Shown piece by piece: positions 51,001 to 60,000 of a stretch of DNA of 64,000 nucleotides. Made by a program: the position numbers. Numbering within the stretch: position 1 is the stretch's first letter; every line of letters begins with the position of its first letter. Origin of the DNA: Escherichia coli (GTDB lineage: Bacteria > Pseudomonadota > Gammaproteobacteria > Enterobacterales > Enterobacteriaceae); NCBI RefSeq assembly GCF_050920415.1, contig NZ_CP169309.1; one strand, written 5' to 3'.

Positions 51001-54000
51001 AGTCAGATATTCCTGTTGATTTGCTGAGGGAATTAAATATTGTCAGCCATATTGTATTGACAGAAACTGGAAAACCAAAAACAGACGAAATAGCAAGGCA
51101 CTCTGAAACCAGCCTCACCTACGGACAACTCCGGCAATGGAGTGATCTGAGTGTACGGCGGGCGGCCAGGAGTTTAGAGGATTACTGTCGGAACCTAAAC
51201 ATTAATGTGGACACTGTCAAACCCTACCTGACCCCAGACGGGCTTACTCCCCTCGGCGAAGAGATGCGGGATAATGTAAAAGTGCAGGGGCTCACTGTTG
51301 TGGGGTAAGGCCCTGCACATCCCGTGGCCCCCTGCATGGCTAAAGCATGGAAAGCGGAAGAAAAAGCGCAATGAGGTCGTAGGACGAACGGTTCGGGGAA
51401 GGCTGAAGAGTACGTATCTGGTCCTGAAGACCGGATAAACCTTCATCGGTCCAACGTTTAAGCCACTTGTAGCTAGTGGCAGGAGAAATGCCGTAGTGAC
51501 GGACCCTGTAAATAATTCTGTGTAACTGCCCACGGTTAAAGGTGGCCGCTCAGGCGGTCACCGTATTCGATAATAAATTGTGTGATTCATAGACATCGTT
51601 TCAATTTTCTCAGCTCAAGTTCAAGCTGGTTATTCTGTTCCTGTATATGCTCCTCATTGGGCTGATAGTTTGCATGAACGGCATCAGAGTATGGCGTTTT
51701 CTTAGCAAGTTCAAAGTAGCGCGCCATCGGAGTTATCAGCCACCCACAGCTGGTCAGGATGTTCTGCCATGAACTGACGATTCACACAGTCGCCTGCGGC
51801 AACGACTTTCCTGCTGACTGTAAACAGAACGACGGTCGGCGGTGAAATAACGGTCTTTGCCCTCACCTACGCCATGGCCCAGCGCCCGGCTCATGTCGTA
51901 CATCACGTTAGTAGCCATCGCTTTCACGCGGGCATCCATTGCGGCGTCGTTCAAAACCATACCTCCCCAGCCGCAAATACCGGGTAACCTGATACTTCAA
52001 CAATAAGATTGGTGCGTGGATGATAGATTGCCAAATAATAATCCATCAAGAAATAATGACAACAAAAAACATCAAGCAACCCTAATGTTATTTGGTCATA
52101 TAAAACATTAATAAGTCTTGACCTTTCCTGACATTTTCCTTATTCGCAATAATATTCTGTTTAGACGTTGTTTATAAACATCATGCATAATGAAATCGTC
52201 ATGTTATTTGGCGATATAAAAAAGTCTTTGAAAATACTCTCTACAACAAGTGCAGTTATAAGCTTGTTGTGACTGAGCGTCCTTGTGATTTAAAGATATT
52301 ATCGTTCTTCATCAGATGTAATAACTCAGGAAATTATATTTTCAGGGTGACAGGCTAATCAAGAATGATTCTTTTTTATAAGCAATAACAGAATGACTGA
52401 ATTGTTATATTTCTTTATTCAGCTGCTTAAATATAAACTTTGGAGAATTATGAAACTCAAACATGTCGGAATGATTGTCGTATCTGTGTTGGCGATGTCT
52501 TCGGCTGCGGTTAACGCTGCCGAAGGTGATGAGTCAGTTACTACCACCGTTAATGGCGGTGTTATTCATTTTAAAGGTGAAGTGGTAAATGCCGCTTGTG
52601 CGATTGACTCAGAATCAATGAACCAAACGGTTGAACTGGGTCAGGTCCGTTCTTCTCGCCTGGCTAAAGCGGGTGACCTCAGTAGCGCTGTAGGCTTCAA
52701 TATCAAGCTGAATGATTGTGATACCAATGTTTCCAGTAATGCGGCTGTTGCATTCCTGGGGACTACTGTCACCAGTAATGACGATACGCTGGCGCTTCAG
52801 AGTTCAGCGGCAGGCTCTGCCCAGAATGTCGGTATCCAAATTTTGGACCGTACGGGGGAGGTATTAATACTGGATGGGGCAACTTTTAGCGCTAAAACTG
52901 ACTTGATTGATGGCACGAATATACTGCCATTCCAGGCTCGTTATATTGCCCTCGGGCAGTCAGTGGCCGGTACTGCAAATGCAGATGCGACCTTCAAAGT
53001 CCAATACCTATAATTCAGTATTCAGGTGGCTATGCGTCATCTGAAATTAAAACAGGGTGTGTGTGGCATGGCTACTCACACCCGAAAAAATTCATCAATG
53101 TTTATCTCATTATTACTAAGGAATGACTTATATTTTGGAACGATATGAAAAAATCATAGAGTATCTAAACGATTAATAAACAAGGCAGTTAAAATTACTG
53201 TGATTTTAAAAATCACTCTGAAGACAATTTTTTATTTCAATAGAGAACCAAGTTTTATTACCAGCGCATTAAGTCTGGAAACCCGGCCATCCGCTATAGC
53301 ATTAGCAATATTTACCATTTTCTGATGTGACGGTTTCCCCCGCTTAGCCTATCAACACATGGAGAACACATCAGATGCAGACGACTCGTACGCCCTACTC
53401 TGTTTCTTTTATGGCGACAGTATTACTTTCATTGGTCTTTCTTTGCCATAGTACCATTGCCAATGCAGCGGTAGCTCTAGGTGCAACTCGTGTAATCTTT
53501 CCAGCAAATCAGAAACAGGTTTTATTGCCTGTCACGAATAATGATCCTGCCAGTGTCTATCTTATTCAGTCATGGATAGAAAATGCGGGTGACCAAAAAG
53601 ATACCCAGTTTGTCATTACCCCACCGCTTTTTTCTATGCAAGGCAAAAAAGAGAATACGCTGCGGATTATCAACGCCACTAATCATCAGTTACCGGGCGA
53701 CCGGGAAAGCCTGTTTTGGGTAAATGTCAAAGCTATTCCTGCTATGGAAAAAGATCAGAAAAATGCAAATACATTACAGCTCGCAATTATTAGCCGCATA
53801 AAAATGTTCTATCGCCCAACGAATTTGGCAATGGCACCTGACCAAGCTCCGGAAATGCTTCGTTTCCGCCGCAGTGGTAGCAAACTGACACTTATTAATC
53901 CGACCCCCTACTTCATTACCGTAACGAATATGAAAGCAGGAAATAGCGATCTCCCAAACACCATGGTGCCTCCAAAAGGTGAGATTTCTGTGGATTTCCC

Positions 54001-57000: not shown

Positions 57001-60000
57001 CCTTTCCAGATTACGTTAAGTGAATGTAGCAAAGGGACAACAGGGGTTCGGGTTGCATTTAGCGGGATAGAGGATTTAGAAAATAATACTCTGCTGAAAC
57101 TGGATGAAGGAAGCAATTCTGCTTCCGGTTTGGGTATTGAAATTCTGGACGGAAATATGCGCCCAGTAAAATTAAATGACCTTCATACCGGAATGCAGTG
57201 GATCCCTCTGACTCCTGATCAGGATAATATTTTGCCTTACTCGGCCCGTTTGAAGTCAACACAAAAGTCCGTCAATCCAGGACTGGTTAGCGCTTCGGCA
57301 ACATTTACCCTTGAATTTCAATAATCAGAGTGAGATATGAATAGAACTTTCCAAAGACTTCTGTTGGCTACGCTCTGTGCGCTATTTTCAGCAACTCTCC
57401 AGGCCGCTGATGTCACTATCACTGTTAATGGTCGGGTAGTTGCTAAACCCTGCACTATTCAAACCAAAGAAGCTAGCGTTAATCTCGGGGATCTTTATAC
57501 ACGCAATCTGCAACAACCAGGTTCTGCATCTGGCTGGCACGATATTACTTTGTCATTAACCGATTGTCCGATTGAAACAAGTGCAGTGACGGCAATCGTA
57601 ACAGGTTCAATTGACAATACGGGTTATTACAAAAATGAAGGTAGTGCCGAAAATATTCAGATAGAGCTGAGGGATGATCAGGAGGCGACGTTAAAAAGTG
57701 GCGATAGCAAAACGGTTATTGTTGATGAGATCACACGTAATGCACAGTTTCCACTTAAGGCAAGAGCTATCACGGTGAATGGAAACGCAAGCCAGGGAAC
57801 GATCGAGGCGCTAATCAATGTGATCTATACCTGGCAATAACATCGATTCGATTTTATAAGCCTCTTTTTTAAATCAATTTTTAACCTAAGGATTTATCAT
57901 GGGAAAAAAAATTAGTATAAATGTCCTGTTCAGTATTTATTTTCTTTTGATGGCAGGTAAAGTCTTCGCCTTCAGTTGTAATGTTGATGGTGGGTCAAGT
58001 ATTGGCGCAGGTACAACTTCTGTGTATGTTAATCTCGATCCTGTCATTCAACCAGGTCAGAATCTGGTTGTAGATTTGTCTCAGCATATAAGTTGCTGGA
58101 ATGATTACGGCGGCTGGTACGACACAGATCATATTAACTTAGTACAAGGCTCAGCTTTCGCAGGCTCCCTACAGTCATATAAAGGATCGCTGTACTGGAA
58201 TAATGTGACCTACCCCTTTCCGTTGACGACAAATACCAACGTGCTGGATATTGGTGATAAGACACCGATGCCCTTACCGTTAAAACTCTATATTACCCCT
58301 GTCGGGGCGGCCGGTGGCGTTGTCATAAACGCGGGAGAAGTTATTGCTCGCATTCATATGTATAAAATTGCAACGTTAGGAAGTGGAAATCCGCGTAACT
58401 TTACATGGAATATTATTTCAAATAACAGTGTTGTTATGCCAACGGGCGGCTGTACCGTTGATAGTCGTAATGTCACAGTGAGTCTCCCGGACTTTCCTGG
58501 AAGCGCAGAAATACCCTTGGGCGTATATTGCTCAAGTGAGCAAAAGCTCTCATTTTATCTTTCGGGCGCTACCACTGACAGTGCCCGACAAGTGTTTGCT
58601 AATACAGCACCTGACGCAACAAAAGCATCAGGAGTCGGTGTCTCCCTGATGCGTAATGGAAAAATACTGGCTACGGGAGAAAATGTCTCCCTGGGAACTG
58701 TAAATAAAAGCAAAGTACCCCTGGGCTTAAGTGCAACTTATGGACAGACAGGAAGCAAGGTCGCAGCTGGAGCAGTACAGTCAGTCATTGGCGTTACATT
58801 TATCTATGAATAATTGTGATGTTGACCCTGTTATACTTTAGGTTGTGCTTTCCATTCACTAAAATTACGCGGATTATTCTTTCCTGAAAGAAATTATCCT
58901 ACACCTGTAAGAAAATCCGCGCACAATTGAAGTCAGAGTCTTATTTTATATATTGAAAAGTATGTTAACTTAAAGACTATGAGAGATGATGCTTAACTTA
59001 TCGCATTTATACTATTCTGTTATTTGACGATAATGAGTTAAAAATAGAATGAGAGTAGCCCCCTACTCTCATATATCCAAATGGCCGATAAGCCCATTAT
59101 ATATACTGCGCATCATCGCTATTACAAATCCTAATAATTCATTTCCACACAGGATAAGCTGATGAAGAAAAAAATTGAATCCTACCAGGGAGCTGCCGGT
59201 GGTTGGGGGGCTGTCAAATCTGTAGCGAATGCAGTCCGTAAGCAGATGGATATACGCCAGGAAGTGATTGCCATGTTTGACATGAATAAGCCAGAAGGCT
59301 TTGACTGTCCAGGATGTGCATGGCCAGATCCTAAGCACAGCGCGTCATTCGACATTTGTGAAAACGGCGCAAAAGCAATCGCCTGGGAAGTCACCGATAA
59401 GCAGGTGAATGCCTCTTTTTTCGCTGAGAATACGGTTCAATCATTACTTACCTGGGGAGATCACGAACTCGAGGCTGCGGGGCGTCTCACTCAACCTTTG
59501 AAATATGATGCCGTCAGCGACTGTTACCAGCCATTAAGCTGGCAACAAGCTTTCGACGAAATTGGCGCACGTCTTCAAAGTTATAGTGATCCAAATCAGG
59601 TTGAATTCTATACTTCGGGCCGCACTTCCAATGAAGCTGCCTTTCTTTATCAGCTTTTTGCCCGTGAATACGGTACCAATAACTTTCCCGACTGCTCAAA
59701 CATGTGCCATGAACCGACCAGCGTAGGTTTGGCAGCGAGTATCGGCGTGGGTAAAGGGACCGTGTTACTGGAAGACTTTGAGAAATGCGATTTAGTAATT
59801 TGCATTGGGCATAACCCTGGTACAAACCACCCTCGCATGCTGACTTCGTTGCGCGCTTTAGTGAAACGGGGAGCGAAAATGATTGCCATCAATCCTCTGC
59901 AGGAGCGTGGCCTGGAGCGATTTACCGCACCACAGAACCCGTTTGAAATGCTGACGAACTCCGAGACTCAATTGGCTAGTGCTTACTATAATGTGCGCAT

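Follow-up and report, generated by a model that had tools for sequence, protein, structure and literature searches.

The F9 (Fml) chaperone-usher fimbrial operon of a cryptic clade I Escherichia strain: gene content, divergence and expected function

Gene content and subunits of the operon

The window (the whole 64,000-nucleotide stretch analyzed, from contig NZ_CP169309.1 of assembly GCF_050920415.1) contains, according to its ORF listing, six consecutive plus-strand ORFs over positions 52450-58813, none of which is truncated. They encode a major pilin, a chaperone, a full-length usher, two minor pilins and a two-domain adhesin, an order that agrees with the one published for f9 (PMC3966885). 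Internal stops are absent, and each of the six ORFs is exactly as long as its equivalent in O145:H28 RM13514 and six clade-I genomes; the RefSeq annotation of the near-identical strain MFDS1022581 includes the same six CDS. A chance origin of the six-ORF arrangement is excluded. The locus is flanked by hipB and hipA upstream (ending at 45188, with a variable 5' spacer between them and the operon) and by ydeP downstream (59162-61441), the same order as in K-12 and O145, and the position between hipBA and ydeP is the published context of f9 (PMC3966885). Overall, positions 52450-58813 almost certainly represent an intact chaperone-usher fimbrial operon of the F9 type (Fml, ydeQRST), paralogous to type 1 fimbriae, in a strain of cryptic clade I, a rare relative of E. 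coli. No feature of the sequence speaks against this identification. The F9 operon as such is known and well studied, and its presence here is ordinary.

The first gene (52450-53013, plus strand) encodes the FimA-like F9 major pilin, which is 187 aa long when read from the annotated ATG (the mechanical ORF begins at 52393) and carries a signal peptide, one pair of cysteines and, at its N-terminus, a donor-strand extension. The protein scores 173.9 bits with the NCBIfam FimA equivalog model (cutoff 140) and shares 98.9% amino acid identity with the O145 allele, with a dN/dS of 0.028. It is followed on the same strand by a PapD/FimC-type periplasmic chaperone of 236 aa (53375-54085), which aligns with residues 2-204 of mature FimC (E = 5e-88). 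Both subunit-anchoring residues, Arg8 and Lys112 in FimC numbering, are kept, the former in the motif GATRVI at mature residue 8 and the latter in SRIKMFYRP, whose K falls on FimC K112. Since its NCBIfam FimC score of 254 bits is under the cutoff of 327, the chaperone is a paralogue and not FimC itself.

The outer-membrane usher (54129-56780, plus strand) is full-length at 883 aa. It covers three whole Pfam models, namely PapC_N at residues 43-195 (model positions 1-146 of 146), Usher at 213-795 (1-549 of 549) and PapC_C at 804-868 (1-66 of 66), and aligns with residues 2-833 of mature FimD, while its NCBIfam equivalog score of 989.5 bits is slightly under the cutoff of 995. The O145 usher is of equal length and shares 93.7% amino acid identity with it. 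As opposed to that, K-12 YdeT (382 aa) aligns only with usher residues 502-883, at 94% identity, which bears out the initial annotation in its statement that K-12 keeps a truncated usher together with the downstream genes ydeS, ydeR and ydeQ.

Two adaptor pilins follow on the plus strand: the FimF-like YdeS of 176 aa (56794-57324; NCBIfam FimF 233.8 bits, cutoff 200), 92% identical in amino acids to K-12 YdeS with a dN/dS of 0.09, and the FimG-like tip adaptor YdeR of 167 aa (57337-57840; NCBIfam FimG 248.9 bits, cutoff 220), 91% identical to its K-12 namesake. The last gene (57899-58813, plus strand) encodes the YdeQ/FmlH tip adhesin of 304 aa, consisting of a signal peptide (residues 1-24), a lectin domain (25-184) and a pilin domain (185-304). 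Its Pfam matches are FimH_man-bind (1-145 of 145) and Fimbrial, and it is 96% identical to K-12 YdeQ over 304 of 304 residues. The lectin domain is identical to that of the crystallized uropathogenic FmlH (PDB 6AOW, 5LNE) at 159 of 160 positions, K120N being the sole change, and has a dN/dS of 0.016. All six ligand-contact residues, F1, Y46, D53, K132, N140 and R142, whose roles in the galactoside pocket have been described (PMC5866590), are present.

The initial annotation had proposed a six-gene operon of the F9/yde type at this place with all genes intact and in frame. The type is confirmed by the position between hipBA and ydeP and by the near-identity of the lectin domain with FmlH (6AOW), and the intactness by the ORF coordinates, which are as claimed, the full-length family matches and the lengths shared with relatives. 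Neither the usher nor the adhesin proved truncated when aligned with YdeT, YdeQ, the Pfam models, FimD and FmlH. The initial annotation did not recognize the allele as a rare and diverged one belonging to cryptic clade I.

Promoter, RNA elements and flanks

A promoter scan placed the f9 promoter at 52162-52191 on the plus strand, with the -35 element TAGACG (52162-52167), an 18-nt spacer and the -10 element CATAAT (52186-52191). Transcription would thus probably start at the G at ~52198, 252 nt before the ATG at 52450. In CFT073, the f9 start was mapped 251 nt upstream of the ATG, behind a -35 element TAGTCG, an 18-bp spacer and a -10 element CATAAT (Wurpel 2014, PMC3966885). The promoter region and the AT-rich leader of ~250 nt, which runs to the ATG, are conserved in the alignment with O145. 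The GC content is 0.31 upstream of the operon (52000-52499) and 0.40-0.49 inside; the low values of both the operon and the region before it are compatible with an H-NS target.

Directly 3' of the major-pilin stop, two RNA hairpins lie on the plus strand at 53021-53045 and 53055-53083, without a U-tract. The folding of 53021-53083 has a minimum free energy of -32.5 kcal/mol (z = -5.09), and none of 200 shuffled sequences was as stable. Only one base of the second hairpin differs from O145 (T to A, alignment column 72), and the O145 base at that column completes a ninth stem pair, while the 500-bp segment containing the spacer with both hairpins is only ~82% identical to O145. By analogy with other chaperone-usher operons, the hairpins may act in transcript stabilization or attenuation, favoring a surplus of the major subunit. 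Downstream of ydeQ, no canonical plus-strand intrinsic terminator was found; a hairpin at 59049-59072 was rejected as the f9 terminator, as its T-run is on the minus strand and it is hence not canonical. An Rfam scan of 44000-64000 gave no match at gathering thresholds.

Directly upstream of F9 lies an island restricted to clade I, which encodes YopM-like LRR proteins and ankyrin proteins. PADLOC found no defense system among the island proteins. The clade-I PCR marker of Okuno 2023 was considered as a part of the island and rejected, neither primer matching the window even at 2 mismatches. The genome of MFDS1022581 is not collinear with the window in this flank: an extra IS2 is located at window position ~46733, and earlier coordinates are offset by 1336.

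Divergence of the clade I allele

Of 5426 complete E. coli genomes, 3597 cover at least 80% of the F9 query; thus, the operon is present wholly or for the most part in about two thirds of E. coli genomes. The F9 DNA of the window, however, is only ~91% identical to every allele of E. coli sensu stricto, and identity of at least 99% occurs in 18 of the 5426 genomes. Comparison of clade-I-type alleles with two sensu stricto alleles gave 43 fixed amino acid differences in the usher, 13 in the chaperone, 11 in YdeS, 8 in YdeR, 7 in YdeQ and 2 in the major pilin. The synonymous divergence of F9 is ~3 times that of the backbone: the dS is 0.33-0.49 for the major pilin, chaperone, usher, ydeS and ydeQ, against a median of 0.117 for 36 backbone genes in this window, likewise measured against K-12. 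The exception is ydeR, which, unlike the neighboring genes, has a near-backbone dS of 0.14-0.16. The dN/dS versus the common allele, 0.03-0.10 in five genes and 0.35 in ydeR, shows purifying selection on each of the six. What is new here is the diverged clade I F9 allele, its high dS combined with purifying selection, and the clade-I-restricted island upstream. Cryptic clade I, from which STEC- and ETEC-type pathogens are emerging (PMC10100065), retains F9 in an intact yet diverged form: of eight clade-I-type alleles compared (the window and seven related genomes), seven have the six ORFs at identical lengths.

The depth of this divergence raises the possibility, which we consider rather doubtful, that the clade I haplotype predates the split between clade I and E. 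coli, having either entered by introgression out of some Escherichia lineage not yet sampled or persisted as an ancient polymorphism, and that the shaft and adaptors diverged antigenically while the receptor specificity was frozen. Such an origin would fit the high dS of the five genes, given that the K-12 and O145 F9 alleles differ by a dS of merely ~0.04, and the backbone-like value of ydeR alone, which suggests a mosaic. It would also fit the contrast between the minor pilins, 90-92% identical between F9 alleles, and the lectin domain, 98.8% identical. Equal or greater divergence, however, exists elsewhere in the window (dS of 0.58 in yneK, 0.31 in marB and 0.27 in ydeO); F9 therefore belongs to the tail of the distribution and is not unique. 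The low GC3 of the F9 genes (0.38-0.44) is a further point against a deep origin, as low codon bias accompanies a higher synonymous rate in enterobacteria. Codon bias as the sole cause of the high dS nevertheless found no support within the window, whose backbone genes, a small sample, gave no correlation between GC3 and dS (rho -0.12, p 0.5). Moreover, a scan with a degenerate DNA pattern of a 12-residue FmlH motif over one genome per bacterial species revealed neither a donor nor a homologue in another species, a weak negative considering that the E. coli representative itself had no match. The sole hit of the scan, a contig of a 'Candidatus Nanosynbacter' MAG, was discarded as mis-binned E. 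coli DNA, 98.6% identical to O145. If true, the deep origin would mean that recognition of a single glycan receptor is under very strong selection throughout the species and that recombination has made the F9 locus a mosaic. Apart from the question of origin, the near-invariance of the FmlH lectin domain over a deep split supports broad coverage of galactoside inhibitors or vaccines targeted at FmlH.

Expected function and comparison with known systems

Judging from the family, all six products of the F9 operon would be exported by Sec, after which the FimC-like chaperone would cap each pilin by donor-strand complementation through Arg8 and Lys112. The 883-aa usher would take up the adhesin-chaperone complex first and then, through donor-strand exchange, polymerize YdeR, YdeS and the major pilin, the last in many copies, resulting in a pilus with the FmlH lectin at its tip. 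The expected ligands of such a pilus are terminal beta-galactosides, Gal-beta1-3GalNAc (TF antigen) and Gal-beta1-3GlcNAc, a prediction based on a lectin pocket that does not differ from the one in crystallized FmlH. Transcription would be expected from the conserved promoter ~250 nt upstream, with silencing by H-NS at 37 °C and relief at ~20 °C, as in CFT073. Indeed, repression of F9 by H-NS, expression at 20 °C and binding of Gal-beta1-3GalNAc and Gal-beta1-3GlcNAc have been described in CFT073 and UTI89 (PMC3966885, PMC5866590). For the F9 of O157, plant xyloglucan is also a reported ligand. F9/Fml adhesins have been implicated in the colonization of the calf gut by EHEC, in chronic urinary tract infection and adherence to the kidney in the case of UPEC, and in plant cell wall attachment (PMC3966885, PMC5866590, PMC7766294). 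From the gene complement, it may reasonably be supposed that the strain could make the F9 fimbria, as the initial annotation had suggested, although F9 is normally under H-NS repression at 37 °C (PMC3966885).

It is unlikely that the operon, intact in appearance, is functionally cryptic in this lineage, that is, silenced for good or disabled through missense or regulatory changes so that no pilus is formed in nature. Several observations point that way: in CFT073 at 37 °C, F9 expression was detected only after deletion of hns (PMC3966885); the HTH regulator genes upstream are present as fragments only, and the 5' flank shows rearrangement by the island and IS remnants; the clade I strain RMDEC465 carries an IS66 element within the usher, and loss is thus tolerated; and the amino acid differences from the studied F9 alleles are numerous. 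However, a dN/dS of only 0.03-0.10 in five genes at a dS of 0.34-0.49, with a still lower value in the lectin domain, shows long-term selection for protein function, and the uniform ORF lengths in seven of eight alleles as well as the conservation of the mapped promoter and leader also argue against a cryptic operon.

Type 1 fimbriae (fimAICDFGH) share with the window operon the common chaperone-usher architecture and the subunit roles, and the window adhesin has the FimH two-domain fold signature with 50% identity overall. Identity with the mannose-binding type 1 operon, as the automatic names FimA, FimF and FimG would have it (the three equivalog scores exceed their cutoffs, RefSeq names the first gene fimA and the adhesin matches Pfam FimH_man-bind), can nonetheless be dismissed, being refuted by a locus between hipBA and ydeP instead of the fim locus, the absence of fimB, fimE and fimI, chaperone and usher scores under the FimC and FimD cutoffs, a lectin domain 46% identical to FimH against 99% to FmlH, and the pocket residues. 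The mannose pocket of FimH consists of F1, N46, D47, D54, Q133, N135, D140 and F142. In the alignment with FimH 3JWN, four of these eight are replaced in the window adhesin (Q133K, N135A, D140N and F142R), which would agree with the binding of galactoside and not of mannose. Type 1 fimbriae also possess the fimB/fimE-fimS phase switch and fimI, whereas the window operon has neither and is placed at a different locus: the ORF listing and annotation contain no ORF for a fimB/fimE recombinase or fimI in or adjoining it, and the search for a fimS-like invertible switch around the promoter yielded only an imperfect 15-mer inverted repeat of background quality, the left arm of which is outside the stretch shared with O145.

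The closest known systems are the F9/Fml operons (CFT073 c1931-c1936, UTI89 fml and O157 F9), which have in common with the window operon the site, the six-gene order, the promoter elements, the gene lengths and the ligand-contact residues. The window allele differs from them in its ~91% DNA identity, the K120N substitution and the replacement of the 5' flank by the clade-I-restricted island. In K-12 MG1655, ydeT-ydeS-ydeR-ydeQ are orthologous to the 3' half of the window operon, whereas the promoter-proximal part, comprising the major pilin, the chaperone and usher residues 1-501, is absent, and K-12 is therefore unable to assemble the pilus. Unlike K-12, the clade I strain has the full gene set needed for F9/Fml pili.

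An intact F9 operon at the hipBA-ydeP locus

Six successive open reading frames of 187, 236, 883, 176, 167 and 304 aa occupy 52450–58813 on the plus strand. Family searches identified the first as a FimA-type major pilin (NCBIfam 173.9 bits, cutoff 140), the second as a chaperone resembling FimC (254 bits, short of the 327 set as the FimC cutoff), the third as an usher (989.5 bits, with a cutoff of 995 for the best model) and the following two as FimF-type (233.8 bits, cutoff 200) and FimG-type pilins (248.9 bits, cutoff 220). The NCBIfam search gave no good model for the 304-aa product, an adhesin in which Pfam recognized a FimH_man-bind domain (1–145 of 145) followed by the Fimbrial pilin domain. 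In the usher, the Pfam models PapC_N, Usher and PapC_C were each covered end to end, and its alignment spans residues 2–833 of mature FimD in the solved structures; that of the chaperone spans FimC 2–204, with Arg8 and Lys112 retained. All six lengths are identical to those in E. coli O145:H28 RM13514. In MFDS1022581, a near-identical strain, RefSeq also lists these six CDS and flags none of them as a pseudogene. The coordinates, family matches, lengths and RefSeq CDS thus agree with the initial annotation, which had described a complete F9/yde-type operon with a full-length usher and a FimH-like adhesin. Truncation of either of these two proteins on alignment had been set beforehand as the refuting test; neither was truncated, which supports that reading. 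Judging from sequence, the strain would be expected to express and assemble the fimbria and to bind its ligand.

The assignment to F9 (Fml) rests on the locus, gene order and lectin domain. The operon is flanked by hipBA on one side and ydeP on the other, with the same position and gene order as published for f9 (Wurpel et al. 2014, PMC3966885). The mature lectin domain (precursor residues 25–184) is identical at 159 of 160 positions to the crystallised uropathogenic FmlH (PDB 6AOW, 5LNE), the sole change being K120N. According to Kalas et al. 2018 (PMC5866590), FmlH grips the terminal Gal of the TF antigen through F1, D53, K132 and N140, with Y46 and R142 touching the second sugar or the aglycones of inhibitors. 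None of these six residues is changed in the present adhesin. A type 1 fim operon, as the automatic FimA/FimF/FimG names would have it, was rejected: the adhesin is only 46% (lectin domain) and 55% (pilin domain) identical to FimH, the FimH pocket residues Q133, N135, D140 and F142 are replaced by K, A, N and R, and no fimB, fimE or fimI was found among the ORFs and annotation of the operon and its surroundings. Those names are therefore paralogue spill-over, and the operon is F9/Fml.

In contrast, K-12 MG1655 carries only ydeT, ydeS, ydeR and ydeQ at this site. Its YdeT (382 aa) corresponds to usher residues 502–883 (94% identity), and YdeQ aligns over 304 of 304 residues with the adhesin (96%). 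The major pilin, the chaperone and usher residues 1–501 have consequently been lost from K-12, in line with the initial annotation, in which K-12 keeps only a truncated usher and the downstream genes.

Promoter, leader and RNA structures

In CFT073, f9 transcription starts 251 nt upstream of the ATG from a promoter with a −35 TAGTCG, an 18-bp spacer and a −10 CATAAT; H-NS binding is direct, and the operon is derepressed in an hns mutant and expressed at 20 °C (Wurpel et al., PMC3966885). A promoter scan predicted the counterpart TAGACG/18 nt/CATAAT at 52162–52191 (plus strand), with a G at 52198, 252 nt upstream of the major-pilin ATG. The match to the common f9 allele starts at about 52082, the leader is highly conserved on alignment with O145, and the GC content of 52000–52499 is 0.31. 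An imperfect 15-nt inverted repeat (13/15; 52024–52038 and 52204–52218) surrounds the promoter. It is of background quality, its left arm lies beyond the region common to other E. coli, no recombinase gene is near, and it is probably a chance match.

Directly downstream of the major-pilin stop are two stable hairpins (53021–53045 and 53055–53083; MFE −32.5 kcal/mol, z −5.1), neither followed by a U-tract. The second differs from the O145 allele at one position, although the 500-bp segment containing this poorly conserved spacer is only 82% identical. By analogy, these hairpins may plausibly act in differential transcript stability. In the ydeQ-ydeP gap, no canonical plus-strand terminator for the operon was seen; a perfect 10-bp-stem hairpin at 59049–59072 has a T-run fitting termination on the minus strand.

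Probable clade I origin and the upstream island

The whole window diverges uniformly by about 3% from E. coli of many phylogroups, and the ydfI-ydeJ backbone is evenly 96.6–97.2% identical (approximately) to strains from many such groups, among them K-12 derivatives, O157:H7 and Nissle 1917. The nearest genomes for this backbone are the same few as for ydeP-ydeN. Since they include EC42405 and 2013C-4282, which Okuno et al. 2023 (PMC10100065) describe as complete cryptic clade I genomes of Escherichia, sequence relatedness makes a clade I strain the most likely source of the window; a primer search placed the clade I PCR marker outside the window. The window and MFDS1022581 are essentially identical, except that the latter has an IS2 insertion (~1.33 kb) at window position ~46728–46733. 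In addition, ydeO, an intact 253-aa ORF here (61962–62723), is marked as frameshifted in the MFDS1022581 annotation.

The region directly upstream of f9 is known to be variable (Wurpel et al., PMC3966885). Here it holds a low-GC island (46740–52080). Among 5426 complete E. coli genomes, only 15, the clade I set, match at least 80% of its length. The island encodes a 535-aa leucine-rich repeat (LRR) protein of the YopM/SspH/IpaH type (SspH2; 47044–48651, minus strand; PDB YopM, E = 5.5e-74), with LRRs at residues ~198–493 and no NEL ubiquitin-ligase domain. Its gene contains an internal self-repeat of ~78% identity, and the protein length differs among strains (477 aa in WL297). A 654-aa ankyrin-repeat protein (49344–51308, plus strand; Pfam Ank_2, E = 1.9e-5) belongs to no NCBIfam or PADLOC family, and in the PDB it matches ankyrin repeats of designed or eukaryotic proteins only weakly. 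Both of these eukaryote-like repeat proteins may represent cargo resembling type III effectors. The island also contains or is flanked by gene fragments of HTH, IS481 and alpha/beta-hydrolase type, and Rfam and PADLOC returned nothing for the upstream flank. Further upstream, a large autotransporter gene (ECSE_1600 family, yneO homologue; 37935–43403) is an uninterrupted ORF of ~1800 codons, unlike its pseudogene counterparts in K-12 and O145:H28 RM13514.

A diverged, constrained allele of a common system

Against O145, dS was 0.34–0.49 for the major pilin, chaperone, usher, ydeS and ydeQ and 0.14 for ydeR, compared with 0.05–0.19 for adjoining backbone genes; the median of 36 backbone genes against K-12 was 0.117, and the F9 genes of O145 and K-12 differ from each other by only ~0.04. 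This excess may stem from a haplotype that is older or was introgressed, or else from a raised local rate. F9 is not the sole outlier, as yneK, marB and ydeO are likewise highly diverged (yneK, 18702–19817: 84% protein identity to K-12, dS 0.58; marB, 15374–15592: 82%, dS 0.31). The dN/dS ratio was 0.03–0.10 in five F9 genes, 0.35 in ydeR and 0.016 in the lectin domain. All six ORFs are intact and of equal length in seven clade-I-type alleles, this one included; in RMDEC465 the usher is interrupted by an IS66 element. Between the clade I alleles and two alleles of E. coli sensu stricto, fixed amino-acid differences were most numerous in the usher (43), followed by the chaperone (13), YdeS (11), YdeR (8), YdeQ (7) and the major pilin (2); a single one of the YdeQ changes lies in the lectin domain.

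When species-representative genomes were scanned with a degenerate motif, FmlH turned up only in E. coli DNA. A 13-kb contig in a 'Candidatus Nanosynbacter' MAG (JARKOR010000108.1, 142–12980), covering ydeS-ydeQ-ydeP and genes downstream, is E. coli DNA (98.6% to O145:H28) and likely a binning contaminant.

A 6.6-kb f9 query matched 5340 of the 5426 complete E. coli genomes, with at least 80% coverage in 3597 (66%), in line with the 60–61% reported for the intact operon (2014, PMC3966885). Only 18 genomes matched at 99% identity or more; the rest reached at most 95% (5278 at 90–95% and 46 at 80–90%). Overall, F9 is a known, common system already characterised by experiment, to which the present analysis makes modest additions: a most likely clade I origin, a diverged yet strongly constrained allele, and an island of possibly effector-like content alongside.
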